DNA of 64,000 bases, taken from the NCBI GenBank assembly GCA_040879145.1, contig JBBDKX010000036.1, positions 434 through 64,433 of the forward strand. The letters run 5' to 3'. Below the pieces are notes generated by a model, which saw only the letters and a list, made by a program, of their open reading frames with translations, was not told the origin of the DNA and did no database searches. This stretch comes from Candidatus Spechtbacterales bacterium (GTDB lineage: Bacteria > Patescibacteriota > Minisyncoccia > Spechtbacterales > 2-12-FULL-38-22). Below, one piece after another: positions 1,440 through 62,341 of this stretch. Each line of letters opens with the position of its first letter. Within the stretch, counting starts at the first letter, position 1. The translations under genes were made by a program, and so were the position numbers.

Positions 1440-1583
1440 CTTAAACCACCTCCTTTCTTTCTGGATTGTTCAAGTTCTGCTTAAATTTAAACACAATTAG
1501 TTTTTTTTGACAACAACGCAACCACAACAAGTACTCACGGACGAATAAGCTTACGTCTTTCTTTATTTAGCCATACAAGGGGT

Positions 1584-1612
1584 TTACATGAAATTATATT
1601 TGCTATATAATA
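1584..1612 (+). promoter_or_regulatory. sigma70-like promoter upstream of rpmE (TTTACA-17-TATAAT)
   Basis: tttaca tgaaattatatttgcta tataat directly 5' of rpmE. Confidence 0.4.
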
Positions 1613-1642
1613 TTTTTGTTTGTTACACATTTAATATTATTC

Positions 1643-1900
1643 ATGAAAAAAGGAATACATCCCGAATACCATACAAAAGCAAAAGTAAAGTGCGCTTGCG
1701 GCACTGAATTTATAGTTGGCTCTACACTTAAAGAAACTGAAGTTGAAACCTGCAGCAGGTGCCACCCCCTGTACACAGGACAGGAACGCGGAGCTATTAA
1801 AGGAGGACGTGTTGAAAAATTCCAGGAACGTCTCCAGAAAAAAGAGGGCTACAAGAAAAAATCTGAAAAACGAGCACGAAAAACCGAAGAAAAAACCTAA
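1643..1900 (+). CDS. rpmE: 50S ribosomal protein L31
   Basis: [10 protein letters not shown]...CxC...[10 protein letters not shown] motif set typical of L31; the track ORF is extended upstream. Confidence 0.9.
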
Positions 1901-2024
1901 GCTCGCTTCGCTCGCTTAAACCGCTGATAAATGCAGATAAAGCTGATAAGATGCGGATAGTATCGGCATAGAATCTGTTAAAATCAGCATAAATCCGCGG
2001 TTATTGTGAGGCAAAGCCGAACAG
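1901..2024 (+). repeat. intergenic repeat family R1, copy A (head gctcgcttcgc + phased GCNGAT/ATCNGC array + ttattgtgagg..gccgaaca tail), ending at the prfA start codon
   Basis: About 80% identical to copies at 42873-43002 (+) and 51780-51903 (-). Confidence 0.65.
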
Positions 2025-3075: not shown

Positions 3076-3168
3076 GCAATCCATCGGCAAGCTCAGGATA
3101 CTGAGTTTATCGAAGTATAGAAAATCCATCGGCAAGCTCAGGATACTGAGTTTATCTAAGTATGGAAA
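3076..3168. repeat. tandem direct repeat, 2 x ~46 bp
   Basis: aatccatcggcaagctcaggatactgagtttatcgaagtatagaaa repeated with 3 mismatches immediately after the prfA stop. Confidence 0.7.
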
Positions 3169-6542: not shown

Positions 6543-6691
6543 GGTTTTGTTCGGCTCCGTCTCACAAAAAGTATAAAGTATAGAGTATGAAGTATAAAGG
6601 GTGCTTGTAAAAAGCTTTGCTCTATACTTTATACTGTATACTCTATACCTGAACGAGCGTGAAGCGCGAGTTTTAAGCTCGCGGAGCGAGC

Positions 6692-14087: not shown

Positions 14088-14286
14088 GGATTTCTGGTAT
14101 TAATTTTATTCCGTCGTAAGCGGGAATGAGAGAGCTTTGTGCAAATACCCGAAGCGAGTAGAAAAACGGCTCTGCCGCGAGGCCTATCCCGAAGGGTAGC
14201 TGGCGTTTTTCGTAAACGAGCGAGGTTGTCCCGCATTTCTTGAAGCGAACGAATGGCAGCGTGGAATAAAATTATACCAGAAATCC
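14088..14286. ncRNA. structured element with ends pairing (24-bp terminal inverted repeat) around a GC-rich core; copy 1 of 2
   Basis: Shares the core ttttattccgtcgtaagc...gggaatgagRgagctttgtgcaaatacccgaagc...gcgaacgaatggcagc..gtggaataaaat with 57396-57652; the outer stems differ but stay complementary in each copy. Confidence 0.4.
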
Positions 14287-14287
14287 T

Positions 14288-15307
14288 TTACTTCTTTTTT
14301 CTACCTATCACCATTTTAGATCGTTTTACTATATGCTCAACATCCATTTCAAAAACCCCAAAAAGCTCATCCGGTTCGCCACTCTCTCCAAACCTGTCCC
14401 TCGTTCCTATAAACTCCTGGGGCACAGGATAATGCTGGCTTAAATATTCACTTACCGCCGAACCCATGCCTCCTAAAATATTATGCTCTTCCGCTGTTAC
14501 TATAGCTCCTGTTTTTCTAACAGACGCCTCAATGGTCTCACCATCCAACGGCTTTATTGTATGACTGTTTATAACTTCCGCCTTGATCCCCTCCTCCTCT
14601 AATTCTTTAGCAGCTAATAGGGCTTTATAAACTAAAGGCCCGCATGCAACGATAGTTACATCTTTGCCTTCTGTAATTACATATGCCTTGCCTACCTCAA
14701 ACGGAGTTTTTTCTGTAGTGAACACAGCATAATTCGCGCGTCCAAGGCGCAGATAAGCAGGGCCGGGGCGTTCTGCCAGTTCCATGGTCGCTCTCTTTGC
14801 TTCATGTACATCCGCGGGAGCCACAACTGTCATACCCGGATGTGTCCTCATTAAAGCAATGTCTTCAAGCGCCTGATGTGTCGCGCCGTCAGGGCCTACA
14901 GAAATTCCCGCGTGAGAGCCCACAACTTTTACATTTATTTCTTTACTCTCTTCAGCTCCCCAGCTATTATAACTTATTGTTGTCCGTATCTGCTCATTGT
15001 TGCGCCCGGGAGAAAACACGGCATAAGACGACATAAAAACAATCTTTCCCGCGGCTGCCATTCCACTGGCAATAGTAGCGAGATTTTGTTCCGCCACTCC
15101 AAGCTCTACAAATCTTTCGGGGAATTTTTCGGCGAAAAAATGAGTGTTTGTGCTTTCTGTAAGATCGGCGCACAAAGCAACGATTTTCTCGTTTTTCTCC
15201 CCAGCTTCAAGCAGACCCTTTCCATAGCCGGCACGGGTTTTAGCCTTTTCTATTTTATCCACATCAAAAAGATTTGATACTAATTTTAGCTTTTTATTTA
15301 TTTTCAT
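14288..15307 (-). CDS. tkt: transketolase, C-terminal (pyrimidine-binding / C-terminal domain) subunit of a split enzyme
   Basis: Tkt central/C-terminal domain sequence; pairs with the N-terminal subunit just upstream. Confidence 0.88.
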   Translation of the reverse strand: MKINKKLKLVSNLFDVDKIEKAKTRAGYGKGLLEAGEKNEKIVALCADLTESTNTHFFAEKFPERFVELGVAEQNLATIASGMAAAGKIVFMSSYAVFSPGRNNEQIRTTISYNSWGAEESKEINVKVVGSHAGISVGPDGATHQALEDIALMRTHPGMTVVAPADVHEAKRATMELAERPGPAYLRLGRANYAVFTTEKTPFEVGKAYVITEGKDVTIVACGPLVYKALLAAKELEEEGIKAEVINSHTIKPLDGETIEASVRKTGAIVTAEEHNILGGMGSAVSEYLSQHYPVPQEFIGTRDRFGESGEPDELFGVFEMDVEHIVKRSKMVIGRKKK

Positions 15308-15509
15308 GATTTTGCTTATAAAATATACAATAGCAGAACATTAATAATTTGAGTGCAATTCTAGGCGCGGCTGGATGTTGAGGATAGCGAGCGAAAAGAA
15401 AGCTTGCTTTCTTTTCCGAGCGACGCAGACAATGCTTTGGAACACAGCGGAATTTGCATAATGGCAAATGAAGCGAGTACCGCAGGCCGCAACAACGAAA
15501 TGTGCCAAA

Positions 15510-18776: not shown

Positions 18777-19232
18777 TTAATCTAAAAATTCTTTAATATA
18801 TTTAATTGTAGGCTGATACCATTCTTTGATCGGGCGAAACGGCATATCATCTGCCAGGTACTGCACTTCAACCCTTAATATGTGCATATCGCGGTCTTCT
18901 TCCAGTTTTTCAACGCCGATTGCTTCTTCAAGAGGCTGTATGCGATTATTTATTTCTTCAAGCTTTTCCTTGTACTCATCTATAAATTTTTCACTGACCT
19001 TTTCCAATTCTGACAAAGCTTCTTTTAACCTGTCTTTATTGGCACCCTCGTTTGGAATATATCTTTGCACAGCGCTTTCAGTAATTATATCATTATATTT
19101 TTCAACAATACCGTAAAAACCATCGCGGAGATGGTTAAAAACTTCCCGGCCTAATTCTTTCTTTTCTTTATAAAGCCCGGCGATACTTTCCCAATCATTA
19201 TTTTCACGTTCAAATTTTGGTTTTTCAGGCAT
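18777..19232 (-). CDS. hypothetical protein (151 aa)
   Basis: Intact ORF; no motif recognised. Confidence 0.5.
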   Translation of the reverse strand: MPEKPKFERENNDWESIAGLYKEKKELGREVFNHLRDGFYGIVEKYNDIITESAVQRYIPNEGANKDRLKEALSELEKVSEKFIDEYKEKLEEINNRIQPLEEAIGVEKLEEDRDMHILRVEVQYLADDMPFRPIKEWYQPTIKYIKEFLD

Positions 19233-19875: not shown

Positions 19876-20012
19876 TTTAACATACGTACTGCCGATTCTA
19901 GAAACTAAAAACCGGCATAATGAACCGCACCCCATTTAGTGGACACGAAAACGTCCACTTTTTTGTATTTTGATACAAAAGAGAATACAATTAATTCAAT
20001 AAACAAAAAAAT

Positions 20013-20426
20013 ATGAGAAAAGAATTCACCCAGGATGAAATAAGAAGGTTAAACTCCAATGATGGCGTACAGAGCTGTACATCCAAGAGTATAACATTCA
20101 CCGAGACATTTAAAACAAAGGCTCTAAAGAGGTATGCGGATGGCCTAATGCCGATTCAGATATTCAGAGATATGGGCCTGGATGTTAACATAATCGGAAG
20201 AAAAACTCCCAAACGATGCATAGAAAGATGGAGAAAGCAGCTTAAAACAGAAGGTAGCCTTAAAGATAGTCGGGGCAAGCATTCTAAAGGAGGAGGCAGA
20301 AAACCAAAAGAAAAGATACCTAAAGATGAAAAGGAAAGAATAAAGTATCTTGAAGCCAAAGTGGCATATCTTGAGAAAGAGAACGCTTTTTTAGCAAAGC
20401 TCCGGGCCAAAAGAAAGGAGGAGTAA
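20013..20426 (+). CDS. IS3-family transposase OrfA (HTH + leucine zipper)
   Basis: 137 aa with a basic/LZ C-terminus KYLEAKVAYLEKENAFLAKL. Confidence 0.85.
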   Translation: MRKEFTQDEIRRLNSNDGVQSCTSKSITFTETFKTKALKRYADGLMPIQIFRDMGLDVNIIGRKTPKRCIERWRKQLKTEGSLKDSRGKHSKGGGRKPKEKIPKDEKERIKYLEAKVAYLEKENAFLAKLRAKRKEE

Positions 20427-21286
20427 TAATACTCAGGCCGCATCAGAAGTATGCTATTATCAGGAGCATACACAAGAACATTAAGATACTCTGCGAAATA
20501 GCAGAAGTATCAACAAGCGGATACTACAAAAGGCTCAAAACCGCGGATGATAAAGATAAGGACTACGAAGACTATCTGACTATCAAAAAGATATGCCAAA
20601 AAGGCAAAATGAGGTGGGGATATCGCAGAGTATGCATGGAATTAGATGGAAAGATGAACCACAAGAAGATCCTGCGCATAATGAACAAGTACGGACTTCT
20701 GGCAAAAACAAGGAGAGCCAATCCTTACAGGCAGATGGCTAAAAAGACCCAAGAACATAGAACCTTTCCAAATATATTAGATCGCAATTTCAAACAAGAA
20801 CATCCGCGCTCAGTATTTTGCGCAGATATCACATATCTTCCTTTTAATCACCGTTTCGCGTATCTGTCTGCCGTGAAGGACATAGCCACCAAGGAAATCG
20901 TAGCAGCACACCTTTCCATGCACATAGACGTGGAACTGGTGATAAGGACCATGGAAAAGTTCCGTAAAGATTCGTATATGCATAAAGAAGCCCTGATCCA
21001 TTCAGATCAAGGCTTCCATTACACCAATCCGGAGTTCATTGCGCTAACGAAACAGCTTAGATTAACGCAGTCAATGTCTAGAAAAGGAAATTGCATAGAC
21101 AACGCGCCAATAGAATCTTTCTTCGGGCACTTCAAGGATGAGATAGATTACAAGTCATGCAGAACATTTGAAGAATTAGAAATGCTCATTAACAATTACA
21201 TAGACCATTACAACAACGAAAGGAGGCAATGGGAATTAAAAAAGATGACCCCCGTACAATACAGAGATCATCTTTTGATGAAATAG
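20375..21286 (+). CDS. IS3-family transposase OrfB (DDE integrase core), expressed by a -1 frameshift from orfA
   Basis: The -1 frame opens at 20375; slippery heptamer T TTT TTA at 20387-20393; STSGYYKR, HSDQGFHYT and NAPIESFFGHFK motifs. Confidence 0.85.
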   Translation, partial: ERERFFSKAPGQKKGGVIILRPHQKYAIIRSIHKNIKILCEIAEVSTSGYYKRLKTADDKDKDYEDYLTIKKICQKGKMRWGYRRVCMELDGKMNHKKILRIMNKYGLLAKTRRANPYRQMAKKTQEHRTFPNILDRNFKQEHPRSVFCADITYLPFNHRFAYLSAVKDIATKEIVAAHLSMHIDVELVIRTMEKFRKDSYMHKEALIHSDQGFHYTNPEFIALTKQLRLTQSMSRKGNCIDNAPIESFFGHFKDEIDYKSCRTFEELEMLINNYIDHYNNERRQWELKKMTPVQYRDHLLMK

Positions 21287-21338
21287 CCGCTTTTTTATTC
21301 GTGTCCACTAAATGGGGTGCGGTTCATTATGCCGGTTT

Positions 21339-21629
21339 TTAGTTTCTTCTCTGAATTTCCCTGTATACTACTGAGCGATGTTCTATCAATAAAATATATA
21401 TATTGCGCCCGTTTACCTTAAAAATAATCCTGTAATCCCCCACTCTTAATTTTCTATACCCTTTCAAATTTTGCCGCAATGGCTGGCCGAATATTTCAGG
21501 ACGCGTTGAAAGCTTTGTCTCTATGCTCTCTTTGATGCGCTTTTGCCAGATTTTACTTAATTTGGGAATATCTTCAGAAATAACAAGCGGATGATATTCT
21601 ATACTAAACTTACTTCCAGGCATTTTCAT
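21339..21629 (-). CDS. RelE/ParE-family type II toxin
   Basis: LRVGDYRIIFKVNGRNIYILLIEHRSVVY; the stop codon lies inside the IS3 right terminal repeat. Confidence 0.8.
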   Translation of the reverse strand: MKMPGSKFSIEYHPLVISEDIPKLSKIWQKRIKESIETKLSTRPEIFGQPLRQNLKGYRKLRVGDYRIIFKVNGRNIYILLIEHRSVVYREIQRRN

Positions 21630-24187: not shown

Positions 24188-24347
24188 CAAAAGCCGGTCA
24201 GGGCATCCCACACTTTAAACCCGTATGCTGCGCGCTGCGGGTTCTCTTATTTATATAATGTGGAAATTTTCAGATTTTGACGCAAATCTACCTGCCTGCC
24301 GGCAGGCAGGGGCGCTGACAACGAAATGCACCAAATTTTAAAGTTCA

Positions 24348-28029: not shown

Positions 28030-28165
28030 AGTGCTACCTCCTTCAAGGTACTAACTGACAACATTATATCATACTTTATATAATTTGTCCAGTATTTCTG
28101 GCAAGGACTGTCCTTGCCAGAAAATATATTTCAAAAGTTGTCCAGCACTACCATGAGTCATTAAT

Positions 28166-28184
28166 ACACCGGTCTGACCGGTGT
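28166..28184. promoter_or_regulatory. palindrome ACACCGGTC-N-GACCGGTGT, copy 1 of 3; flanked on both sides by the palindrome ctggcaaggactgtccttgccag
   Basis: Other copies at 28719-28737 and 29351-29369, all intergenic within the small-gene island. Confidence 0.5.
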
Positions 28185-28228
28185 CTGGCAAGGACTGTCC
28201 TTGCCAGACATGCATGCGAGTAAACAAT

Positions 28229-32689: not shown

Positions 32690-32849
32690 AAATTTATAGG
32701 AGTTAGGCTTTAGCTTTTTAGCTTCTTAGACGTTATTTTTGTTTTTCCTACAAAGCTAAGAACCTAACTCCTAAGACCTACTCACGAAGTAAGCATACCA
32801 TTATACAGTGTTGTCAATAGTTAATCAAGTAGTGTACAATATGTCCGCA

Positions 32850-34187
32850 ATGAACAAAAATGTATCGATAGAGAAGATAAAAGAACTCCCCCAAAAACCA
32901 GGCGTGTATTTTTTAAAAAATAAAAACGGGGATGTTTTTTACATTGGAAAAGCAATAAACATAAAAAGCAGGGTGCAAAACCATAAAAACAACAGTGACC
33001 TTTTTAAACCTGAAAAAATACATACTGTTGAGTGGGTGGAAACTGTAAACGAGATAGAAGCGCTCTTAAAAGAGTCTGAGTACATAAAAAAACTTAACCC
33101 AAAAATGAACATCCGCCTGCGAGATGATAAAAAATATTTTTATGTAGGAATTACCGGCGAAGATTTGCCGCGGATATTTATTACCCACCAACCACTCAAC
33201 AAGAAACAAGGTACAAGGATACAAGAAACAAACAAATCTCAAATTACAAATTCCAAACAAAAAGCTAAAAGCCAAAAGCTAAAAGCTATAACCTACTTAG
33301 GTCCCTATACTGACGGAGGGGCTTTAAAGTTGACCCTCAAATACCTAAGAAGGCTTTTTCCTTACTACACAACAAATCCAAAACGGCCTCTTTCCGCTAA
33401 AAAACATGGCAAGCTCCTCTGTTCTTACTGCCATCTCGGATTATGTCCGGGTCCGGAACCTAAAAAAAGCGAGTACCTAAAAAGTATCAAAGTAATGAAG
33501 CAAATCCTTAAGGGCAGAAAAAAGAGCGTAATAAGCGCCCTCAAAAAAGAGATGAAAGAAAACTCCAGACTGGAGAAATTTGAAAAAGCGGCCGAACTTC
33601 GCAATATTGCTCAATCCGTTGAAAATATCTTTTCTCACAACACAGTCCTGCCATGGAATGAAGAAGTCAGTAGCAAGCGAACAGATATGGGAACTGCCGA
33701 ATATCTTGCAAATCTTGTTGGATCAAAAAAACCAATACACTCCATTGAGGGTTACGACATATCAAATATTCAGGGAAAAGAACCCACAGCATCAATGGTG
33801 CGATTTCAAAACGGAAAGCCGGAAAAAAACTTATACAGAAAATTCAATATCAAATCTCCGGATGAACCCAACGACTACCTAATGATGCGCGAAGTTGTCA
33901 GGCGACGATTAAAAAACAACTGGCCCCTTCCGGACCTCATGCTTATTGACGGCGGTCGCGGACAATTAAATTCAGTTCTTGTTGAACTTCGCAGTGCAAA
34001 AGTTAACATACATGCGGTATCTCTTGCTAAGCGCGAGGAGGAGTTATACCTGCCCAAACAAGTAAAACCCATTCCCCTAAATACAATGCCCAGTGAAGTT
34101 GAAAACCTTTTGCGCTATGCCCGGGATGAAGCGCACAGATTTGCTGTAAGCCACCACCGCCAAAGACACAGAAAAAAATTCCAATAA
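32850..34187 (+). CDS. uvrC: excinuclease ABC subunit C, short form lacking the C-terminal (HhH)2 domain
   Basis: N-terminal GIY-YIG (PGVYFLKNKNGDVFYIGKA) and the endonuclease V-like region IEGYDISNIQG; ends ~150 aa short of a typical UvrC. Confidence 0.8.
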   Translation: MNKNVSIEKIKELPQKPGVYFLKNKNGDVFYIGKAINIKSRVQNHKNNSDLFKPEKIHTVEWVETVNEIEALLKESEYIKKLNPKMNIRLRDDKKYFYVGITGEDLPRIFITHQPLNKKQGTRIQETNKSQITNSKQKAKSQKLKAITYLGPYTDGGALKLTLKYLRRLFPYYTTNPKRPLSAKKHGKLLCSYCHLGLCPGPEPKKSEYLKSIKVMKQILKGRKKSVISALKKEMKENSRLEKFEKAAELRNIAQSVENIFSHNTVLPWNEEVSSKRTDMGTAEYLANLVGSKKPIHSIEGYDISNIQGKEPTASMVRFQNGKPEKNLYRKFNIKSPDEPNDYLMMREVVRRRLKNNWPLPDLMLIDGGRGQLNSVLVELRSAKVNIHAVSLAKREEELYLPKQVKPIPLNTMPSEVENLLRYARDEAHRFAVSHHRQRHRKKFQ

Positions 34188-34615: not shown

Positions 34616-34730
34616 CTCGCTTCGCCTGCCTGTGCGTGAACGCACGCAGACAGGCTCGCAGGTATCAGGTTTTAGGTTTTAGGTATTAGACTAATATCTA
34701 ATACTTAGTGCTTAAAACCTATTTGTGAAC
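34615..34730 (+). repeat. intergenic repeat family R2 copy (gctcgcttcgc + GC hairpin cctgcctgtgcgtgaacgcacgcagacagg + AT-rich aggtatYaggttttag hairpin)
   Basis: Homologous copies at 36988-37100 (+), 42132-42275 (-), 55128-55262 (-) and 58796-58913 (-). Confidence 0.65.
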
Positions 34731-34740
34731 GAAGTTAACT

Positions 34741-34825
34741 CCGACGCTATCAAAATCTTTGATTTTGTTATAGCGTCGAGGATCCACGATACCGCAAGCG
34801 AATCAAAGATTCGGGTGGTATCGGG
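34741..34825 (+). promoter_or_regulatory. double-hairpin leader element (E3) immediately 5' of secG
   Basis: GACGCTAT[CAAAATCtttGATTTTG]ttATAGCGTC and CGATACCGCaag[CGAATCaaaGATTCG]ggtGGTATCG; about 97% identical to 37108-37195. Confidence 0.6.
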
Positions 34826-34833
34826 GCAAATAC

Positions 34834-35061: not shown

Positions 35062-35136
35062 TTTGCTACGTTCATATAACATAGGTCGTATAACGTATAA
35101 CATCGCGCTTGCTTCGCGAGCACCTAAAAATGTTCT

Positions 35137-36987
35137 ATGTTCCAAGTTCTATGTTCTGTAATTTTGTGTGGCAAAACCGAACAAATGTTTAAAAGAAAGG
35201 AAAATAGACTACTTGCTAAGGAAGGGGCTAAAAAAGAAAAGGAAACCGTAAAATTTAGCCAGCGAATACATGATGGATATGTATCGCTGGTTTCTTTTGG
35301 TAAAGGAGTGTTCCACAGATTCAAACCTCAGGAAAAATATTTTGCGGGCATCGCCGCGCTTATTATTATAAGCTCTCTTTTTGCCATAGGTGTACAGGTG
35401 TACATAACAAAAACAAGCTCTGTTCCAGCCTTTGGCGGAGAATACAGAGAGGCAGTTATCGGTGTTCCGCGTTTTATAAATCCCGTACTTGCGTCTACTA
35501 ACGATGTAGATAGAGATTTGGTCCACCTTGTTTACTCATCTTTGGTGCGCTACGACAAAAATGGGGGTATAGTTCCCGATCTTGCAGAAGAATACACAAT
35601 ATCAGAAGACGGAAAACAGTATCGCTTTACTCTAAAAAACAACCTAAGGTGGGAGGATGGAACTCCCCTCACCGTCGATGATATTTTATACACGATAGGG
35701 CTCATACAAAATCCGCAGTACTCAAGTCCGCTGTTTCAAAGCTGGCAGGGTGTCCAGGTATTTAGCGAAGATAGCAGAACAGTAATTTTTGAACTATCCT
35801 CTCCTTATCCGGCATTTATAGAAAATGTCACCTTAGGAATCCTTCCAAAACACATATGGCAGGATGTAGATGAAAAAAATTTTGTTTTAACAGATTTGAA
35901 TTTAAAACCCATAGGTTCGGGGCTATACAAAGTTGAAAAATTCACAAAAGACAACGCGGGTTTTATATCCTCTTACACGCTTGTGCGCAACGAAAGATAT
36001 TACAACCAAAAACCGTTTATAAATAAGATTACTTTTAAATTTTTCTCATCAGAAACAGACACGGTAAAAGCTTATAACGCCAAGAGTGTAGACGGAATAT
36101 CTTTCATTTCTTCAGGGGTAATAACCGAAATGGAAGACAAAGAAGCCTTCAATATGCATGAATTTAAAATGCCAAGATATTTTTCCATATTCATTAACAA
36201 GGAAAAAAACGAGGCCTTGCAAGACCTAAAGGTGCGCCAGGCTTTAAGTTACGCCACCAACAGAAAACAAATAATAGACGGCGTTCTTTTAGGTTACGCG
36301 CAAGAGGTGGGAACCCCCATACCTCCCAACTTAACTTCATACTACAATGAAAGCGCTGAATTTTTAGACTACAATCCGGAAAAAGCGCGAGAACTTCTTA
36401 GAGAAGCGGGGTGGGAGGACAACAACGAAGATGGTATTTTAGAAAAAAGTACAGGGGAAGAAGATGCCGAAGTGCAGGAATTATCCTTAACCCTTGTAAC
36501 AGCGCAGCGTCCCGAACTTGAGCAGGTTGCGCAACTACTACAAGAGCAGTGGAGGCAAGTTGGAATCAACTTAAATTTTAAAACAGAAGAGTTGGGAGAA
36601 CTTCAACAAAGCACAATACGTTCGCGCAACTATGAGCTACTCATGTTTGGAGAGATTCTCGGAACCATACCGGATCCCTTCAGTTTCTGGCATTCTTCAC
36701 AAAAAAATGACCCGGGACTTAATCTTGCAAATTATGATAATAGGGAAATAGATAAGCTGCTTGAAGAGGCGCGGCAAGAGACAAACAAAGAGGCACGCAT
36801 TGAAAAGCTTAACGAATTTCAGCTCAAGGTAACGGCGGATGTGCCTGCAATATTCCTGTATGACCCCGCATATCTTTACCCTATACAAAAAAGCATACGA
36901 GGAATTGAACCTGTCTTTATGGTTGACAGCTCGTGGCGATTCGCAGACATACAAAACTGGTATATAGCAACTAAGAGAGTATTTTAA
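35137..36987 (+). CDS. ABC transporter substrate-binding protein, family 5 (oligopeptide/dipeptide type), N-terminally membrane-anchored
   Basis: SBP_bac_5-like sequence; the start may be an internal Met near 35185. Confidence 0.75.
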   Translation: MFQVLCSVILCGKTEQMFKRKENRLLAKEGAKKEKETVKFSQRIHDGYVSLVSFGKGVFHRFKPQEKYFAGIAALIIISSLFAIGVQVYITKTSSVPAFGGEYREAVIGVPRFINPVLASTNDVDRDLVHLVYSSLVRYDKNGGIVPDLAEEYTISEDGKQYRFTLKNNLRWEDGTPLTVDDILYTIGLIQNPQYSSPLFQSWQGVQVFSEDSRTVIFELSSPYPAFIENVTLGILPKHIWQDVDEKNFVLTDLNLKPIGSGLYKVEKFTKDNAGFISSYTLVRNERYYNQKPFINKITFKFFSSETDTVKAYNAKSVDGISFISSGVITEMEDKEAFNMHEFKMPRYFSIFINKEKNEALQDLKVRQALSYATNRKQIIDGVLLGYAQEVGTPIPPNLTSYYNESAEFLDYNPEKARELLREAGWEDNNEDGILEKSTGEEDAEVQELSLTLVTAQRPELEQVAQLLQEQWRQVGINLNFKTEELGELQQSTIRSRNYELLMFGEILGTIPDPFSFWHSSQKNDPGLNLANYDNREIDKLLEEARQETNKEARIEKLNEFQLKVTADVPAIFLYDPAYLYPIQKSIRGIEPVFMVDSSWRFADIQNWYIATKRVF

Positions 36988-37100
36988 GCTCGCTTCGCCT
37001 GCCTGTGCGTGAACGCACGCAGACAGGCTCGCAGGTATTAGGTTTTAGCTTTTAGGTATCAGACTAGTACCTAGTACCCACAACCTATTTTGTGAGGTGG
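36988..37100 (+). repeat. R2 repeat copy upstream of pgi
   Basis: gctcgcttcgcctgcctgtgcgtgaacgcacgcagacaggctcgcaggtattaggttttagcttttaggtatcag... Confidence 0.65.
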
Positions 37101-37107
37101 AGCGAAT

Positions 37108-37195
37108 CCCGACGCTATCAAAATCTTTGATTTTGTTATAGCGTCGAGGATCCACGATACCGCAAGCGAATCAAAGATTCGGGCGGTATCGGGAC
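37108..37195 (+). promoter_or_regulatory. double-hairpin leader element (E3), copy 2, immediately 5' of pgi/pmi
   Basis: Same two nested hairpins as 34741-34825. Confidence 0.6.
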
Positions 37196-37201
37196 AAAAA
37201 C

Positions 37202-38301: not shown

Positions 38302-38385
38302 GCGCAGATGGCGGAATCGGTAGACGCGCTACGTTCAGAACGTAGTGGGCGCAAGCCCGTGGAGGTTCAAGTCCTCTTCTGCGCA
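38302..38385 (+). tRNA. tRNA-Leu (anticodon CAG), type II with a long variable arm
   Basis: GCGCAGA acceptor; GGCGGAATCGGTAGACGC D-arm; CTACG-TTCAGAA-CGTAG anticodon arm; GGAGGTTCAAGTCCTCT T-arm. Confidence 0.9.
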
Positions 38386-38387
38386 CA

Positions 38388-38544
38388 ATTTAACGAAGTG
38401 AAATTGAGAGTAGGAGAGGATGCAGAACCTCAGGAAGGGGTCCCACCAGAGGCGGGCAAGCAGGCCTGCCTGCCGGCTCGCCTCGCTCTCTCGGCGGAGC
38501 GGGCAGGCAGGGAAGCGGGGGGAGTCCTCTTCTGCGCACATGTA
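38388..38544 (+). repeat. GC-rich ~140-bp insert ending in an 18-bp direct repeat of the tRNA-Leu 3' end (agtcctcttctgcgcaca)
   Basis: Contains the CCTGCCTGCC...GGGCAGGCAGG palindrome (38465-38511); an attL/attR-like duplication. Confidence 0.6.
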
Positions 38545-38614
38545 TTATTATAAATTAACATACAAACTAATTAACACTGTATTCGAACTCTAAAGAATAC
38601 AATAATTTTGCATT

Positions 38615-40742: not shown

Positions 40743-42131
40743 CTACCCCGCAACCCATTCTTTTGAGACAAAATCATAACGGGAAAGCTTTTCTCGGAAT
40801 ATTTGTTCTATTTTTTTTAAATTCTCTTCTGTTTTGGCTTCAAACCGAAGCGTGAGGTTGGGGCCGGTATTTGAAACACGCACAAGCCCCCAGCCCTCTA
40901 ATTCTTCAAAATTAACGCGTGCGCCGTCAATGTCTATAACAGCATAGCCCTCTTTTTTAAATTCCTCGGTTACTTCTTTTACAGTACCAAACTTTTTATC
41001 ATCCGGCGTTTCGGCGGTATAGCCCGGACTTGAAATATATTGCGGTGTTTCCGCCTCTAACTCTGAGACGCTTTTGTTCTGCTCTGAAAAATACTGCACT
41101 AAACTAACTGCCGCCATAGAGGCATCATCAAAACCATAGTAGTTGTGCTTTAAAAATATATGGCCGCTGAGCTCCGCCCCTAGCTCTGCTTTTTCTTTCT
41201 TCATAATTCTCTTAATATTTGAATGGCCAGTTGGCGCCATTACGGCCTCACCTCCGTGCGCCTCAATATCTTCGGGTAGCGCCTTTGAGCTTTTGACATC
41301 ATAAATTATCTTGGCTGCCGACTTATTTTCTAAAACAAGGCGGGATAAAAATATAGAAAACTTATCCGGCCATACAATTTGCCCTACTTCATCAACCATA
41401 CCTAAACGGTCGCCGTCACCGTCAAAGGCGAACCCGAAATCTGCCTTATTCTCTAAAACAACTTTTGCAGTATCTTCCATCATTTTAGTGTCAGCTGGAT
41501 TTGGCGTATAATTTGGAAAGTCAGCATCAGGTTTTGTATAACGCTCAACCACCTCACACCCTATGGTACGTAACAAGTCGGGAGCAAAAAGCCCTGCCGT
41601 GCCGTTGCCCGTATTTACAACTATCTTAAATTTCTTTTCAACATTTACACGCGATGATAGATCTTTTATATACTCCTTTTTTATATTTTCTTTTCTAACC
41701 CCTCCCCCATCGTGTTCTTCGAGATCATTATCCAATATCATTTTATACAGCCCTTTTAACTCCTTGCCCCCAAGCGTACTCGCAAAACCATCTGCCAGTT
41801 TTGCGCCGTTCCATCCTTTGGGGTTGTGTGATGCGGTTATCATTATGCCACCTCCTGTTTTAAAATAAAACTGCGCCCAGGACATCATGGGCGTCATAAC
41901 AGTACCTATATTTATTACTTTCCTGCCCGTAGATACAAGGCCTTTTATAGCAGCCTCGCGAAATTTCTCAGATGTTGAACGGCTGTCATTGCCTATTACA
42001 ACAGTTTCAATGCCTTTGCGCGCCAAATAGGTGCCGTATGCACGACCTATAAGCTCCAGAGAGCTAATATTTAGCTCATCGTTGCTTTCTCTTCCGCGTA
42101 TATCATATTGGCGAAAAATTGATTCATTCAT
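40743..42131 (-). CDS. phosphoglucomutase/phosphomannomutase (alpha-D-phosphohexomutase family)
   Basis: GIMITASHNPKGWNG active-site loop; all 4 domains. Confidence 0.88.
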   Translation of the reverse strand: MNESIFRQYDIRGRESNDELNISSLELIGRAYGTYLARKGIETVVIGNDSRSTSEKFREAAIKGLVSTGRKVINIGTVMTPMMSWAQFYFKTGGGIMITASHNPKGWNGAKLADGFASTLGGKELKGLYKMILDNDLEEHDGGGVRKENIKKEYIKDLSSRVNVEKKFKIVVNTGNGTAGLFAPDLLRTIGCEVVERYTKPDADFPNYTPNPADTKMMEDTAKVVLENKADFGFAFDGDGDRLGMVDEVGQIVWPDKFSIFLSRLVLENKSAAKIIYDVKSSKALPEDIEAHGGEAVMAPTGHSNIKRIMKKEKAELGAELSGHIFLKHNYYGFDDASMAAVSLVQYFSEQNKSVSELEAETPQYISSPGYTAETPDDKKFGTVKEVTEEFKKEGYAVIDIDGARVNFEELEGWGLVRVSNTGPNLTLRFEAKTEENLKKIEQIFREKLSRYDFVSKEWVAG

Positions 42132-42275
42132 AGATTTTATTTCGGCTCTACCTCACAAAATAGGTATTAGGTTTTAGCTATTAGGTATTACACTAGTGTA
42201 GCACCTAATAGCTAAAACCTAATACCTGCGAGCCTGTCTGCGTGCGTTCACGCATAGGCAGGCGAAGCAAGCTTG
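42132..42275 (-). repeat. R2 repeat copy upstream of pgm, with a perfect 25-bp inverted repeat AGGTATTAGGTTTTAGCTATTAGGT
   Basis: Reverse complement gcttcgcctgcctatgcgtgaacgcacgcagacaggctcgcaggtattaggttttagctattaggt... Confidence 0.65.
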
Positions 42276-42311
42276 TTGACTAATACACTTATTATGATAC
42301 CATATCTAAGT

Positions 42312-42869
42312 ATGTCAGACACAATAATAAAACCAAAAAAATCATATGAATTGTACATGCTTCTAAGCCCCGCGTCCTTTGATGGAGATGTTTCGGGTGT
42401 AGAGGAAGCTGTTGGTAAGATTTTACAAAAACATGGAGCACAAATAGAACGATCAGATAGGTTCACAAAAAAAGATTTAGCTTACAATATACAAAAATTT
42501 GGCTATGCGTACGCTGCAAGTGTTTATTTTTTTGCTCCAACTGAAAGTATAGAGGAAATAACAACTGAGCTAAATACATCAGATATAGAGTTTCTGCGAA
42601 TATTAATTACAAAAGCTCAAAAAAGACCTAAAATTTCTACAAAGCCACGCAGAACAAAACCAAAGCAAAATACGGAAGAAATGTCTAAAGAAAAGGTGGC
42701 TGTTACTGAAGCTAATCCTAAAAAAGAGGAGGTAGCATCAAAAAATACTGACGAACCAAACACAAAAAAAGAACAGAACCAAAAAAATGAAGACAAAGAA
42801 CCGGATGGAGATAAAATAACATTAGACGACATAGACAAGAGGCTTGATGAAATAATGGAACAACTATAA
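42312..42869 (+). CDS. rpsF: 30S ribosomal protein S6 with a long charged C-terminal extension
   Basis: YELYMLL...LAYNIQKFGYAYAASVYFFAP pattern of S6. Confidence 0.75.
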   Translation: MSDTIIKPKKSYELYMLLSPASFDGDVSGVEEAVGKILQKHGAQIERSDRFTKKDLAYNIQKFGYAYAASVYFFAPTESIEEITTELNTSDIEFLRILITKAQKRPKISTKPRRTKPKQNTEEMSKEKVAVTEANPKKEEVASKNTDEPNTKKEQNQKNEDKEPDGDKITLDDIDKRLDEIMEQL

Positions 42870-42872
42870 TTA

Positions 42873-43485
<613 letters not shown>

Positions 43486-43563
43486 GCTCGGACTAAAGCC
43501 CTCGTAATTTCAAATTTAGAATGCTGAATTTCAAATGAATGACTAAATGACCCAATGTTTCAA

Positions 43564-43623
43564 CCTGCCTGCCGGTCCCGACTCTCGATGAGAGTACGAG
43601 GACTCGAAATCGGAGCAGGCAGG
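43564..43623. repeat. GC-rich palindromic mini-element CCTGCCTGCCGG...GCAGGCAGG inserted between ssb and rpsR
   Basis: Same terminal motif as 24291-24310, 38465-38511 and 57619-57638. Confidence 0.55.
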
Positions 43624-43684
43624 AATTAAAGCATTAAAAAATTAAATTGAAATTTAAAATTTAGAATTTAAAATTTTTGCCAAA

Positions 43685-43891
43685 ATGAAAGAATGTCAAA
43701 TTTGTAAAAATCAAATGATGGTTGACTGGAAAAACGCAGAACTTTTGCGTCGTTTTATGGATTACGATTTTAAAATCATGTCCCCAAGAAAAACGGGAAC
43801 GTGCGCGAAACACCAAAGACAAGTTGCAAAAGCTATCAAAAGGGCGCGACAGGCAGGAATACTGCCTTATACACCAATGCTAAGCGACTAG
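43685..43891 (+). CDS. rpsR: 30S ribosomal protein S18
   Basis: ...LLRRFMDYDFKIMSPRKTGTCAKHQRQVAKAIKRARQAGILPY. Confidence 0.9.
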   Translation: MKECQICKNQMMVDWKNAELLRRFMDYDFKIMSPRKTGTCAKHQRQVAKAIKRARQAGILPYTPMLSD

Positions 43892-47982: not shown

Positions 47983-47989
47983 TTTGTTC

Positions 47990-48110
47990 GGCTTCGCATC
48001 ACAAAACAAGATTACACTGATAATAACTGATACCACTGATGATTTTTACATGCATCAGCGTAATCAGCCATTATCTGTGATATCTAAGCGAGCGAAGCGA
48101 GCTTAGCGAG
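47990..48110 (-). repeat. degenerate R1-like repeat upstream of ftsK (3 x CTGAT direct + 3 x ATCAG inverted at ~10-bp phase, then the gagcgaagcgagc head)
   Basis: cactgataataactgataccactgatgatttttacatgcatcagcgtaatcagccattatctgtgat ... aagcgagcgaagcgagcttagcgagc. Confidence 0.5.
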
Positions 48111-51746: not shown

Positions 51747-51779
51747 ATTTTTGTTCCTACCTGCGCCGCATTATGCAAC

Positions 51780-51903
51780 GCGGCAGGCAGGCACTTCGTT
51801 CACATTAACCGCTGATATATGCTGATTTTGCGGATTTTATGCTGATAACATCCGCATCTATCTGCTTTTATCCGCATTAATCCGCGGTTTAAGCGAAGCG
51901 AGC
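51780..51903 (-). repeat. R1 repeat copy C, occupying the rpoB-rpoC intergenic spacer
   Basis: Reverse complement taagctcgcttcgcttaaaccgcggattaatgcggataaaagcagatagatgcggatgttatcagcataaaatccgcaaaatcagcatatatcagcggttaatgtgaacgaag. Confidence 0.65.
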
Positions 51904-55116: not shown

Positions 55117-55127
55117 AAAATTTTATT

Positions 55128-55262
55128 CCTGCCTGCGCCGGCTACGCTAGCGCGGCAGGCAGGTTGCTTAGCCTTACAAGTAGGTTTTAGGTACTAGGGG
55201 TTAGGTATTAGTCTAATACCTAAAAGCTAAAACCTGATACCTGCTCGCGAAGCGAGCTTAAT
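55128..55262 (-). repeat. R2-like repeat upstream of rpoB (a variant lacking the inner GC hairpin but with an adjacent cctgcctgcgcc...gcggcaggcagg hairpin)
   Basis: Reverse complement gctcgcttcgcgagcaggtatcaggttttagcttttaggtattagactaatacctaacccctagtacctaaaacctac. Confidence 0.6.
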
Positions 55263-57395: not shown

Positions 57396-57652
57396 TTATT
57401 CCGTCGTAAGCCCGTCTCGCCTGAGGCTTGCCGAGGTGGACGGGAATGAGGGAGCTTTGTGCAAATACCCGAAGCTTATAAGAAAAGGGTCTTGCCTTTA
57501 GGCCTATCTTTTGCGTGTGGGCAAAAGTAGCTGTCGCTTTTCCGTTAAGTAAGCGAGGTTTACCCGCCGAAGCCTTGGCGTAGGCTGGGCTGTATTTGCC
57601 AAAGCGAGCGAATGGCAGCCTGCCTGCCGGCAGGCAGGCGTGGAATAAAATG
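57396..57652. ncRNA. structured element copy 2 (same core as 14088-14286), with a 14-bp terminal inverted repeat and an embedded CCTGCCTGCCGGCAGGCAGG palindrome
   Basis: Conserved blocks ttttattccgtcgtaagc, gggaatgagggagctttgtgcaaatacccgaagc, aggcctatc, gcgaatggcagc, gtggaataaaat. Confidence 0.4.
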
Positions 57653-58788: not shown

Positions 58789-58795
58789 AAAAAAG

Positions 58796-58913
58796 TTTTA
58801 GGTTTTAGGTATTAGGTACTAGGTTCTAGATATTAGTCTAATCCCTAAAAGTTAAAACCTGGTACCTGCGAGCCTGTCTGCGTGCGTTCACGCACAGGCA
58901 GGCGAAGCGAGCC
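58796..58913 (-). repeat. R2 repeat copy immediately upstream of the rodA/ftsW start
   Basis: Reverse complement gctcgcttcgcctgcctgtgcgtgaacgcacgcagacaggctcgcaggtaccaggttttaacttttagggattagactaatatctagaacctagtacctaatacctaaaacctaaaac. Confidence 0.65.
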
Positions 58914-58914
58914 T

Positions 58915-59793: not shown

Positions 59794-59883
59794 TATATAA
59801 AACCTTCTAATACATCCTTATACTATCATAAATTTAAATGTTGATTAATAGAAAAATCAACCAAAATAAAAAAACAGATATAA

Positions 59884-59989
59884 GGCGTCTACCTACTTTC
59901 CCAGCGCGAAGCTAGTATCATCGGCCTTAGAGGATTTCACTGCCGTGGTCGGAATGGGAACGGGTGGAGCACCTCCAGCATAAACGCCT
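59884..59989 (-). rRNA. rrf: 5S ribosomal RNA
   Basis: Reverse complement ...cccgttcccattccgaccacggcagtgaaatcctctaaggccgatgatactag...; terminal stem ggcgtc/gacgcc. Confidence 0.9.
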
Positions 59990-60043
59990 TATATCTGTTT
60001 TTTTGTTTTTATTAACACGAACAAAACCTAAAAAGTTATTCAA

Positions 60044-60060
60044 AAGAAACTTATAATTCC
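60044..60060. promoter_or_regulatory. 3' half of the 23S processing stem (cttataattccgcggtt), pairing with 63699-63715 (aaccgcggaattataag)
   Basis: 17-bp perfect complementarity flanking the 23S gene. Confidence 0.6.
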
Positions 60061-60415
60061 GCGGTTGAAACACTGACCGCTTTCCCTCTGTGTTTGTAAA
60101 AACACAGAGGTATGACTATTAGTACTACTCAGCTTAACCCCTCTCAGGGCTTACACTTATAGCCTATCAACCTGTTAGTCTAACAGGAGTCTAAGAGCTC
60201 TAATCTTGAGGCGGGCTTCGTGCTTATATGCTTTCAGCACTTATCCCTTCCGAACATAGCTACCCAGCGATGCTCCTGGCGGAACAACTGGTACACCAGA
60301 GGTTCGTTCACTCCGGTCCTCTCGTACTAGGAGCGAGTCCCCTCAAAGCTCAAGCGCCCACGGAAGATAGGGACCAACCTGTCTTGCGACGGTCTGAACC
60401 CAGCTCGCGTAGCGT

Positions 60416-60451
<36 letters not shown>

Positions 60452-60481
60452 CCAGCCCCAGGATACGCCGAGCCGACATCG

Positions 60482-60872
60482 CTGTCGATTTTTCTCTTGT
60501 TGCCAAGAGGATCGGACTATATCTTCATCCTATTGCGGACTTTAGGCGTTCTTAGCCATAGCCTCGCTTTTTATAATAGGAGTCGGCGTGTTGTCCTTCA
60601 AATTTTTTCGAAGAACCTCCCCTTTCGGGTCAGTCTCTACGGGGTCATAACCCAATTTGTATTCCATAGATGGAATAATATGTGGTTTAACGATCTGCTT
60701 AAGCAATGGAATACTCGATTAACCACAGGTCTTTGAAATTGAGTTAGACTTCCCACGGTATTGTCCATACGTATATTCTACCATTATTTGGTAGCGCTAG
60801 TGCATGGAGTTCACCGTTATAAGCCGAATTGTTTTTGTATGAGATTACTCTCATAGGCACCCCGATATGTTA
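60482..60872 (-). ncRNA. probable group I intron (~391 nt, no ORF) inserted at 23S position ~2500 (E. coli numbering) in the peptidyl-transferase region
   Basis: Interrupts GGCACCU | CGAUGUCGGCUC; 5' exon ends in U, insert ends in G; IGS GGGGUGCC pairs with the exon GGCACCU; UAGUC P7-like element. Confidence 0.6.
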
Positions 60873-61492
60873 AGGTGCCGAACCTCCCCGTCGATGTGGA
60901 CTCTCGGGGGAGACCAGCCTGTTATCCCCGGGGTAACTTTTATCTGGTGATCTTCCTCTTTTCTATAAAAGAAGGTCGGTTCACTAAGTTCTGCTTTCGC
61001 AACTCTCTACTCCAGTAAACTGGAGTAGAGTCTGTTACTTCCCTGAGATTAAAATCACAGGGTTTTACAGAGCGCGGCTTATTTGCCTTGCAGTAAAGCT
61101 GGCTTGTGCCTTTACACTATCGCTCCGATTTCCATCCGGAGCTAGCCAACCTTAATAAACGCCTCCGCTACCATTTAGGAGGCAAGCGCCCCACTTAAAC
61201 TACCTACCATCCACTGTCCCGAATGTGTTTAGCATCCGGTTAGTCACAGTATTTTGAAAGATGGGTATTTCACTGGCGACTCCACACTGGCCGAAACCAG
61301 CGCTTCAAAGTCTCCCCACTATGCTACGCAGCCAAAACACTGCAACAATAGAAAGCTGTAGTAAAGCTCCCGGGGTCTTTCCGTCTATCCGCGGGTAACC
61401 GGCATCTTCACCGGTACTGCATTTTCACCGGGCTTCTCGTCGAGACAGTTGTCCAGTCGTTACGCCTTTCGTGCGGGACAGAACTTACCTGC

Positions 61493-61541
<49 letters not shown>

Positions 61542-62341
61542 CGGCGCTTGTATCACCAGCTTTCCAGCGAACTGGAAAACCAACAATACTTAACGTTCCG
61601 GCATTGGTCAGGCGTCACCCCCTATACATCCCCTTACGGGTTCGCAGGGAGCTGTGTTTTTGATAAACAGTCGCTAGACAGACTTTAGCTGCGCCCTATA
61701 TTGCTATAGGGAAGGCATATCCCTAAGTTACGCCTAGTTTTTTTGCCGAGTTCCTTGACGAGAACTCACCCGTTCGCCTTGGTATACTCTACCTGCCCAC
61801 CTGTGTCGGTTTGCGGTACGGATTCATATCTATTAACCTTAGAAGCTTTTCTCGGAAGGTTGCTGGGAGGAATAATCTCCATTACAGAGACTTTTCCCGA
61901 CGCTTAGAATTGCCTTACGGCCACCTGGGCATTTCTCCCAGGCATTCCTTACGCAAGGAACACAAATCCAATAACATGCTCCCCTTACTAACCTCCGTCA
62001 CTCCGTCGAATAAATATGAAGAGATGGAATATTAACCATCTGTCCATCCCCGTGACCCTTTCGGGCCCCGGGTTAGGGCCGCCTAACCCTTGGCTGATTG
62101 ACATTGCCAAGGAAACCTTGGGCTTTCGGCGTGGGGGTCTCTCACCCCCATTGCGGTTACTCATGCCAACATTCTCTCTTCCTGCCGCTCCACCATGCCT
62201 TACAGCACAGCTTCAGCGCAACAGAAATGCTCTCCTACCACACACTACCCAAAGGTAGTGCATCCACGTCTTCGGTAGTAAACTTTAGCCCCGTTAAATT
62301 TTCAGCGCAGAAACTCTCGACTAGTAAGCTGTTACGCACTT

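Follow-up and report, generated by a model that had tools for sequence, protein, structure and literature searches.

The stretch analyzed here, 64,000 nt from Candidatus Spechtbacterales bacterium (GenBank assembly GCA_040879145.1, contig JBBDKX010000036.1, positions 434 to 64,433; hereinafter the window), carries a repeat, R1, in the spacers 5' of four core genes, prfA, ssb, rpoC, and ftsK. We found that R1 belongs, as one of several sub-families, to a modular family of interspersed, non-coding palindromic repeats and is not a conserved control site of those genes. Its pyrimidine-rich head (GCTCGCTTCGC[TCGC]) and/or its purine-rich tail (TTGTGAGGCGGAGCCGAAC) recur in at least 12 elements of the window, all of these have the potential to form stable hairpins, and five of the sites that they occupy are empty in the closest relative. 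We lean toward the reading that they are an interspersed palindromic repeat of the kind represented by MITEs (miniature inverted-repeat transposable elements), BOX, and ERIC, one that has been amplified in this genome and that we do not assign to any named family. As far as the searchable literature shows, such a repeat has not been described in Patescibacteria.

All four R1 copies listed in the initial annotation are present, and Pfam supports the gene pair that flanks each of them (L31 and PrfA, S6 and SSB, RpoB and RpoC, and RpoC and FtsK; Table 1). The arrangement of four GCNGAT followed by four ATCNGC half-sites about 10 nt apart, as first described, holds for the three full copies (four [G/A]CNGAT and then four ATCNG[C/T], with start-to-start distances of 9 to 11 nt and a mean of 10), whereas the divergent ftsK copy has three of each, as CTGAT/ATCAG units between a triple GCTCGC head and a canonical tail. 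The full copies, given as about 80% identical, measure 75 to 80% in pairwise comparisons, and the ftsK copy is 61 to 66% identical to them. The copies were also said to end at the start codons; those before prfA, ssb, and ftsK do, but at rpoC the R1 homology stops near 51796, about 50 nt short of the ATG, and a second GC-rich hairpin (CCTGCCTGCCGCG...CGGCGCAGGTAGG) is nested within the R1 tail. R1 is not an assembly artefact, because the 3' half of the prfA copy is identical in an independent Logan assembly (run SRR27977663) and because Logan contigs end within the elements, as is expected of multi-copy palindromes.

The four copies initially noted undercount the family. In a strand-blind search of the window allowing at most one mismatch, the head GCTCGCTTCGC gave 12 matches compared with 0.83 expected; a search for the tail TGTGAGGNNRAGCCGAA gave 7 compared with 0.15 expected. 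Elements were recognized by reading these head and tail matches together with all of the intergenic spacers of the window. Their plan, from 5' to 3', consists of an upstream stop codon, the head GCTCGC-TTC-GCTCGC, an optional GC hairpin, a palindromic interior, the tail (either TTGTGAGGCGGAGCCGAAC or TTGTGAACGAAGTGAAC), a few A-rich bases, and the ATG. The termini are inverted repeats, in that the 3' terminal word (GTGAGGCGGAGCCGAAC or GTGAACGAAGTGAAC) is an imperfect inverted repeat of the 5' word and the head GCTCGCTTCGCTCGC pairs with the tail GTGAGGCGGAGCCGAAC. Purines make up 24 to 35% of the head in most copies and 53 to 70% of the tail. The elements range in size from 118 to 229 nt, together account for about 3% of the window, and contain stop codons in nearly all frames (one to six per frame).

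Between these shared ends, the interiors are unrelated among sub-families, but in each a small number of units repeated in tandem along the 5' arm is matched by complementary units along the 3' arm. The unit is GCNGAT with a period of 10 nt in R1, AGGTWTT with a period of 7 nt in R2 (five copies, 88 to 94% identical, differing in unit number), GTATAVA with a period of 7 nt in R3, a period-7 unit in R4, and an AATTTCA-type unit with a period of 7 to 8 nt in R5. The 10-nt period is thus found only in R1. An optional GC hairpin module (CCTGCCTGCC...GGCAGGCAGG) is nested in some of the elements. We also observed the GC-rich module CCTGCCTG(CC)...(GG)CAGGCAGG at at least nine loci of the window, often within or beside elements and directly 5' of the rpoB and rpoC starts, and it occurs 5' of rpoB in one of the relatives (L124) as well; the module is possibly a unit of the REP type.

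Every element folds into a much more stable structure than shuffled sequences do (z scores of -3 to -8.3), with stems of 20 to 33 bp, and in most of them the outermost helix closes 0 to 10 nt past the stop codon and 4 to 13 nt ahead of the ATG. Relative to dinucleotide shuffles, the z scores of the four R1 copies range from -3.0 to -7.7, and all four are predicted to form long hairpins, which supports the earlier proposal that R1 RNA in the 5' untranslated region (UTR) would fold into a long hairpin with regular bulges; the same applies to RNA between cistrons. The covariation for which RNAalifold had been recommended was essentially missing from the R1 copies, where 3 of 23 pairs covary with a covariation term of -0.25, the sequences being few and too alike, and most of the half-sites that face each other do not match at their central N. 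Sense and antisense folding, including G-U pairs, showed no asymmetry (the minimum free energy [MFE] differed by between -13.9 and +6.7 kcal/mol and, on average, by close to 0). In the whole window, Rfam matches at the gathering score were limited to rRNA, tRNA, and one group I intron, and a permissive scan of positions 42100 to 43700 returned only sub-threshold matches to miRNA precursors, on both strands. Equal folding of the two strands, scant covariation, mismatched central positions, and the lack of an Rfam match therefore indicate that the hairpin is a property of the DNA palindrome, an origin that neither proves nor excludes a function as RNA.

The elements are strictly polar. All 12 heads from the strand-blind search are oriented toward the immediately downstream gene, on both DNA strands, and the same-plan elements of other genomes are co-oriented too (7/7: one each in L124, L125, and L130 and two each in L126 and L128), while none of the six convergent spacers of the window holds an element. 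Because native spacers measure only 4 to 25 nt, any insertion abuts both a stop and a start codon, and the proximity to start codons is thus largely a by-product. Most genes of the window lack a Shine-Dalgarno sequence and have A/T-rich leaders; the GAGG/GGAG of the tail was considered as a Shine-Dalgarno sequence and rejected, as it lies 13 to 22 nt from the ATG and is too distant. A promoter-like CTGACA-16-CATAAT (42318-42291) lies just 5' of the pgm copy, placing that copy in a 5' UTR. As a separate observation, the listing of longest open reading frames (ORFs) gives upstream GTG, ATG, or TTG starts that run into elements (42979, 48036, 35137, and 42273), the real starts being those of ssb at 43003, ftsK at 47982, the solute-binding protein gene at 35185, and rpsF at 42296 (ATG at 42294-42296).

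The RpoC encoded in the window is 100% identical to a protein from a metagenome-assembled genome of Candidatus Spechtbacterales. We compared the syntenic region in eight relatives whose RpoC is 82 to 69% identical to that of the window and in which the order ftsW-rpoB-rpoC-ftsK-HTH (helix-turn-helix)-recA-(rpsR)-ssb-rpsF/pgm is conserved. The closest of them (L122/L123; RpoC 82% identical) has the same gene order with far shorter spacers: 4 nt between rpoB and rpoC compared with 157 nt in the window, 20 compared with 128 nt between rpoC and ftsK, 16 compared with 133 nt between rpsF and ssb, 25 compared with 141 nt between rpsF and pgm, and 5 nt or an overlap compared with 126 nt upstream of ftsW; its 19 kb contain neither the canonical head nor the canonical tail. 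Short gaps recur elsewhere (rpoB-rpoC, 7 nt in L125 and 1 nt in L129; rpsF-ssb, 29 nt in L129; ssb-rpsR, 5 nt in L125 and L130), and same-plan elements fill the rpsF-ssb gap in L125, L126, and L130. Expression of these core genes does not depend on the elements, given that the closest relative leaves the corresponding spacers empty, and the suggestion of a lineage-specific expression or processing signal of conserved operons is not upheld by spacers of 4 nt (rpoB-rpoC), 20 nt (rpoC-ftsK), and 16 nt (rpsF-ssb).

Where relatives do carry elements, the interiors differ. The rpoC-ftsK element of L124 begins with AGCTCGC, has TGCGAAT units, and ends with TGTGAGCTTGCGAACAAA ahead of the ATG; among the rpsF-ssb elements, that of L125 combines ACTCGCCTTGCTCGC, TTACTAAA units, and TTTGTGAACGAAGTGAAC, and that of L130 has TACGAAA units; and an element of L126 consists of head and tail without an interior. 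Copies are more similar to paralogues of their own genome than to orthologues elsewhere. R2 copies are 88 to 94% and R1 copies 75 to 80% alike within the genome, whereas orthologous interiors differ, which suggests amplification or gene conversion within genomes. A GC-richer Spechtbacterales relative (L131) has its own unrelated repeat family, which starts with AGTAGGTACTTGACGAACG (L131:18142-18344 and 18834-19088, minus strand); as these repeats fill both the rpsF-ssb and the ssb-rpsR gaps, the two spacers are evidently recurrent landing sites.

The terminal words have counterparts outside the Patescibacteria. A strict head-to-tail pattern, which matched four times in the window compared with 0 expected, was found in one metagenome contig only (L128, 2 kb), a match that, taken alone, is compatible with chance (about one expected in the collection). 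The contig belongs to the Bacteroidota, on the evidence of an ABC ATPase that shares 92% identity with a protein of a Bacteroidota metagenome-assembled genome (MAG; GCA_043797975.1) and about 80% with proteins of Bacteroidales. Stop-to-start hairpin elements lie at L128:731-857 and 1575-1767 (minus strand) and at L134:4590-4801, the orthologous spacer in that MAG. These elements fold with z scores of -6.3 and -7.2 and consist of 16- to 18-nt GC-rich words (CACGAGCGCAGCGAGT, TGTGAGGCG(A/C)AGCCGAAC, and CGCGACCAAAGGGAGC) and T/A-rich linkers, and L128 has a fuller terminal inverted repeat of 17 to 18 bp (GCTCGGCTTCGCCTCGCG / CGTGAGGCGTAGCCGAAC). The window tail is identical to TGTGAGGCG(A/C)AGCCGAAC at 17 of 18 positions, and the window head is the inverted form of CACGAGCGCAGCGAGT. 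When the Bacteroidota spacers were compared with the whole window by blastn-short, the strongest matches fell only at element termini (tail, 19/20; head TAACTCGCTTCGCTC, 15/15), the others being 10 to 15 nt long with chance-level E values. Given the repeated words, their position, and their polarity, a real relationship between the words of the two lineages is likely; it may stem from horizontal transfer or from a shared functional word. Other searches brought up only chance matches: the looser pattern CTCGCTTCGCN{90,120}AGCCGAAC yielded 120 loci in genome contigs, mostly of GC-rich genomes, all of which were dismissed as chance, including the sole one from the candidate phyla radiation (CPR; L113), and the tail 18-mer had four chance-compatible matches in viral contigs, none in an element context.

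Searches of plasmids and phages by blastn, and searches of Rfam and of the literature, the last including exact strings of the terminal words, gave no match to the terminal words or elements and no matching family or paper. As Rfam offered only generic miRNA-like hairpins, the initial statement that no cis-element of this architecture is described stands. Among known systems, ERIC/IRU of enterobacteria, a 127-bp imperfect palindrome found in both orientations, is similar in size and in its transcribed intergenic sites, including sites inside operons. It is co-transcribed, has orientation-dependent effects on the flanking mRNA (PMC2229807), and, like the elements here, is present or absent between related genomes; unlike them, it has neither tandem-unit arms nor sub-families with swapped interiors. 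A relation in sequence was sought through Rfam and literature strings, neither of which gave a match. Correia/NEMIS elements of Neisseria (100 to 155 bp) likewise have terminal inverted repeats and a mobilization visible as filled and empty sites, and they are co-transcribed, with an RNA hairpin that is a substrate of RNase III (PMC2229807, PMC2649163). However, the TA duplication, the IHF site, and the promoter-forming ends of Correia elements were not seen in the elements here. The long intercistronic hairpins with internal loops at which RNase III cuts single transcripts of phage T7 provide a functional analogy only, being unique conserved sequences and not a repeat family.

BOX of Streptococcus pneumoniae and BrickBuilt/MITEPgRS of Porphyromonas gingivalis share with our elements modular ends, variable internal tandem units, intergenic location, and stable hairpins, and different BrickBuilt families have common terminal inverted repeats but different internal repeats (PMC4596501), as is the case here. 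Their internal units are direct and 23 to 45 nt long whereas ours are palindromic and 6 to 10 nt long, the BrickBuilt termini (GAGACCTTTGCA) match known insertion sequence (IS) elements whereas no such IS was found here, and neither family has the strict polarity and the stop-to-start fit. MIRUs are also intercistronic, follow the polarity of the flanking genes, and insert at start codons in a manner thought to limit the impact on expression (PMC12548453). Nevertheless, MIRUs are direct repeats whose small ORF overlaps the stop and start codons on either side and is coupled at a -4 spacing, and we rejected membership in that family because the elements are palindromic and have one to six stops in almost every frame. 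REP, BIME, and REPIN sequences are short GC-rich palindromes that join into larger hairpins and are amplified within genomes (PMC3116915, PMC3733652), and the CCTGCCTGCC...GGCAGGCAGG module resembles a REP. REPs, though, are usually located at 3' ends or in convergent spacers, and none of the six convergent spacers is occupied here. REPs are 20 to 40 nt long, carry a GTAG/CGTC tag, and depend on RayT; the GC module is followed by GTAG at only two loci (24310 and 51760), and no RayT/Y1 transposase gene is present within the window.

The case for a repeat of the MITE/BOX/ERIC kind is built on termini that are imperfect inverted repeats, interiors of tandem units that can be exchanged, the nesting of modules, orthologous sites that are filled in one genome and empty in another, and recent amplification. 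Like MITEs, the elements are small (within 50 to 500 bp), non-coding, and multi-copy, have terminal inverted repeats, and show filled versus empty states at five orthologous sites (the window versus L122/L123). Several points weigh against this reading. Comparison of filled and empty sites revealed no consistent target-site duplication, the left flank usually being a TAA or TAG stop codon; no autonomous element with these termini was found in the window, where the only transposase is of the IS3 type and has unrelated 50-bp inverted repeats; and MITEs that are driven by a transposase are rarely so strictly polar. Four lineages, with RpoC only 71 to 75% identical to that of the window, have a filled rpsF-ssb spacer with one and the same left junction, TAA-TTAA(A/G)CTC, and this recurrent occupancy with a shared junction suggests long retention and hence possibly selection, just as the near-identical terminal words in a Bacteroidota lineage hint at a constraint beyond neutral decay. 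To these we add the extent of the material, 64 kb of the source genome and about 150 kb of relatives. Because neither a target-site duplication nor a cognate transposase was found, we do not file the elements as strict MITEs.

If the elements are such mobile repeats, copies would land in, or persist only in, co-transcribed spacers of 4 to 25 nt or short 5' leaders and would be transcribed within the mRNA of the flanking genes. In the cell, the RNA would fold into a hairpin of 100 to 130 nt, the base of which draws the upstream stop codon near the downstream start, leaving the A-rich leader just 5' of the ATG single-stranded. Polarity may then reflect a translational filter, as the start codon, in the reverse orientation, would lie against a GC word that is rich in pyrimidines and fully paired, in a genome poor in Shine-Dalgarno sites. 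There are precedents: transcripts of small bacterial repeats of 100 to 200 bp form long stem-loops (PMC2229807), co-transcribed ERIC and Correia elements alter mRNA stability in an orientation-dependent manner (PMC2229807, PMC2649163), MITE families with common terminal inverted repeats but different internal tandem repeats are known (PMC4596501), and the insertion of MIRUs at start codons follows the polarity of the gene (PMC12548453). Effects on expression, such as cleavage of the RNase III type, transcript stabilization, or insulation of cistrons, are probably a by-product and not a dedicated, gene-specific function.

The main alternative, which we consider unlikely, is that the elements are domesticated cis-acting RNAs, either processing or stabilizing sites of the RNase III type, which would let the levels of adjacent cistrons differ as at the intercistronic sites of phage T7, or devices for translational coupling or shunting; in the coupling version, a ribosome ending at the stop codon would melt the head-tail stem and free the start region placed beside it. 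Strict polarity, the exact stop-to-start fit of the helix base, and stems of a length expected of double-stranded RNA nuclease substrates all speak for it, as do the occupancy of rpsF-ssb in four lineages with conserved ends and replaced interiors, the presence of the terminal words in a second Shine-Dalgarno-poor phylum, and the mechanism supplied by the RNA-unfolding model of translational coupling (PMC12548453). However, the sites are empty for the same essential genes in the closest relative, sense folding is no better than antisense folding, R1 shows negligible covariation and mostly mismatched central positions in its paired half-sites, and at least three copies (in the pgm, rpoB, and uvrC leaders) have no upstream ORF to couple to. 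It seems quite unlikely, in turn, that the elements represent an unrecognized class of polar stop-to-start hairpin cassettes, used by or adapted to Shine-Dalgarno-poor bacteria, in which the 16- to 18-nt terminal words common to a Patescibacteria and a Bacteroidota lineage are functional. Termination would then re-expose the ribosome or pass it on across more than 100 nt, in a bacterial analogue of ribosome shunting, or the hairpin would direct processing, and short tandem units, expanding symmetrically, would account for growth and turnover of the arms.

The remaining readings fare worse. A mobile promoter inside the element, driving the downstream gene in the manner of Correia, is very unlikely. 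The apex of the ssb copy of R1 does contain TTGATG-15 nt-TAGAAT, TAGAAT or TAAAAT occurs in others, and the 3' arm of the ssb-rpsR element contains TTGAAA-16-TAAAAT, but a consensus scan identified no promoter in R1 and a total no higher than in shuffled sequences (5 compared with 5.5 expected), the -35-like hexamer varies between copies, and the elements lie within operons that need no internal promoter in relatives. Of the earlier comparison with a mobile, promoter- or ribosome-binding-site-bearing repeat like BOX or Correia, the mobile repeat is thus the part that fits best, whereas the promoter and the ribosome-binding site find no support in R1 or in the distant tail motif. The proposal of an iteron-like array, in which 10-bp-phased sites bind a dimeric protein that regulates prfA, ssb, rpoC, and ftsK, is highly improbable, despite the regularity of the 4+4 half-sites in the full R1 copies and the 15- to 16-bp dyad at the center of the array, made up of its two middle half-sites. 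In sister sub-families, which have the same termini and genomic habit, the units are unrelated and their periods are 7 to 8 nt, four direct units followed by four inverted ones suit a hairpin whereas a dimer needs adjacent dyads, the sites are absent 5' of the same genes in the nearest relative, and Pfam annotation of the window genes associates no regulator or rep gene with the copies. Since the units differ so widely (AGGTWTT, GTATAVA, and AATTTCA in the window and TTACTAAA, TACGAAA, and TGCGAAT in relatives), no single binding protein or helical-phase rule can explain the family. Finally, it is extremely improbable that we are dealing with guide-RNA or cassette arrays, whether TIGR-Tas, CRISPR-like, or integron attC. 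Sites of the attC type are imperfect palindromes of about 60 to 140 bp that follow a stop codon in one polarity, much as here, but RYYYAAC...GTTRRRY ends and an integrase would be expected; the end motifs are wrong and the flanks are housekeeping genes such as rpoB and rpoC and not cassettes, so attC was rejected. TIGR arrays, common in Patescibacteria, have short alternating repeats, the 36-nt unit consisting of two alternating 8- to 12-nt repeats and 9-nt spacers beside a Nop-domain tas gene (PMC12045711). The units here are 6 to 8 nt long and palindromic and Pfam reveals no tas gene nearby, and TIGR-Tas was rejected on these two grounds.

CPR genomes are regarded as streamlined, and yet a proliferating repeat takes up about 3% of this stretch and has entered some of the most conserved operons (rpoB-rpoC, rpsF-ssb-rpsR, and rpmE-prfA). 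Insertions of 120 to 220 nt between tightly spaced essential cistrons appear to be tolerated if they are self-folding and of a single polarity, and they amount to a natural experiment on the requirements and limits of intercistronic spacers where Shine-Dalgarno sites are scarce. If the cross-phylum relationship is true, it points to horizontal spread of a non-autonomous element or to a conserved RNA or DNA word. In practical terms, the elements break short-read assemblies and mislead the calling of start codons, as for ssb, ftsK, and the solute-binding protein gene.

Table 1. Palindromic elements and GC hairpin modules of the window
Element and location	Coordinates	Strand	Features
R1, rpmE (L31) stop to prfA ATG at 2025	1901-2024	+	head, four GCNGAT, four ATCNGC, tail; MFE -39.4, z -3.8
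R1, rpsF stop to ssb ATG at 43003	42870/42873-43002	+	z -5.3
R1, rpoB stop to rpoC ATG at 51746	51747-51903	-	R1 part ~51796-51903; GC hairpin module ~51753-51791 nested in tail
R1-like (divergent), rpoC stop to ftsK ATG at 47982	47983-48110	-	MFE -53.8, z -7.7
R3, before rplY (L25/Ctc)	6543-6691	-	R1-type head and tail, GTATAVA interior; z -8.0
R2 with two-hairpin leader module (34741-34833), before secG	34616-34833	+	head, GC hairpin, AGGTWTT units, type-B tail GTGAACGAAGT
R4, secG stop to ATG of solute-binding protein gene	35062-35184	+	GCTTGCTTCGCGAGC hairpin at apex, period-7 arms, canonical tail
R2 with leader module (37109-37201), before pgi	36988-37201	+	93-94% identical to the 34616 copy
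R2, 5' leader of phosphoglucomutase gene (pgm)	42132-42272	-	MFE -67.6, z -8.3
R5, ssb stop to rpsR ATG	43486-43684	+	GCTCGG head, AATTTCA-type units, central CCTGCCTGCC...GCAGGCAGG hairpin
R2 with GC hairpin module, directly 5' of rpoB ATG	55117-55257	-	z -5.0
R2, hypothetical gene to ftsW	58789-58914	-	tail lost; 3' arm with five units
R6, head-less relative in uvrC leader	32690-32807	+	AGGMKTT/AGCTTTT hairpin units, degenerate tail CACGAAGTAAGC
GC hairpin module loci	24291-24310, 34625, 36998, 38465-38520, 43564-43640, 51753-51791, 55125-55163, 57619-57638, 58902		

Several further features of the window were recorded. The two-hairpin leader module that accompanies R2 before secG and pgi is about 95 nt long, its two copies (34741-34833 and 37109-37201) are 94% identical, and its motif CGAGGATCCACGAT occurs a third time at about 29290, 5' of a gene ending near 29272; the module could be an unrecognized cis-regulatory RNA. 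Within uvrC (33233-33297), in-frame AAAAGCT/AAAGCC units resembling those of R2 and R6 encode part of the UvrC linker (translated ...KQKAKSQKLKAITY) and may be repeat units absorbed into the coding region. The motif TTTGG(C/T)(A/G)CATTTCGTTGT occurs at 15480-15509 and 24320-24347 (minus strand), each time immediately after a stop codon, and may be the head of intergenic elements of another type. The two longest intergenic regions contain a pair of structured, non-coding sequences of about 190 nt (14100-14290 and 57420-57640, minus strand) that are 81% identical over 68 nt, are flanked by ggaataaaat/attttattcc, and have no Rfam match at the gathering score.

An IS3-family insertion sequence with HTH_Tnp_2 and rve ORFs and perfect 50-bp terminal inverted repeats occupies positions 19900 to 21347. 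The 5S and 3.5-kb 23S rRNA genes lie at 59880-63597 (minus strand), the latter with a group I intron (60493-60884), which fits Patescibacteria. At 38302-38553, the 3' end of tRNA-Leu(CAG) is repeated (agtcctcttctgcgcaca) about 150 nt beyond the gene, with a GC hairpin between the two copies, and the locus resembles an integration scar at the tRNA gene. Repeated palindromes include TCTGGCAAGGACTGTCCTTGCCAGA (two copies; 28097-28208), ACACCGGTCTGACCGGTGT (three copies; 28165, 28718, and 29350), and TAAATGGGAAAACCGGTTTTCCCATTTA (two copies; 28683 and 40476), and a 45-nt tandem duplication is located 3' of prfA (3078-3167).

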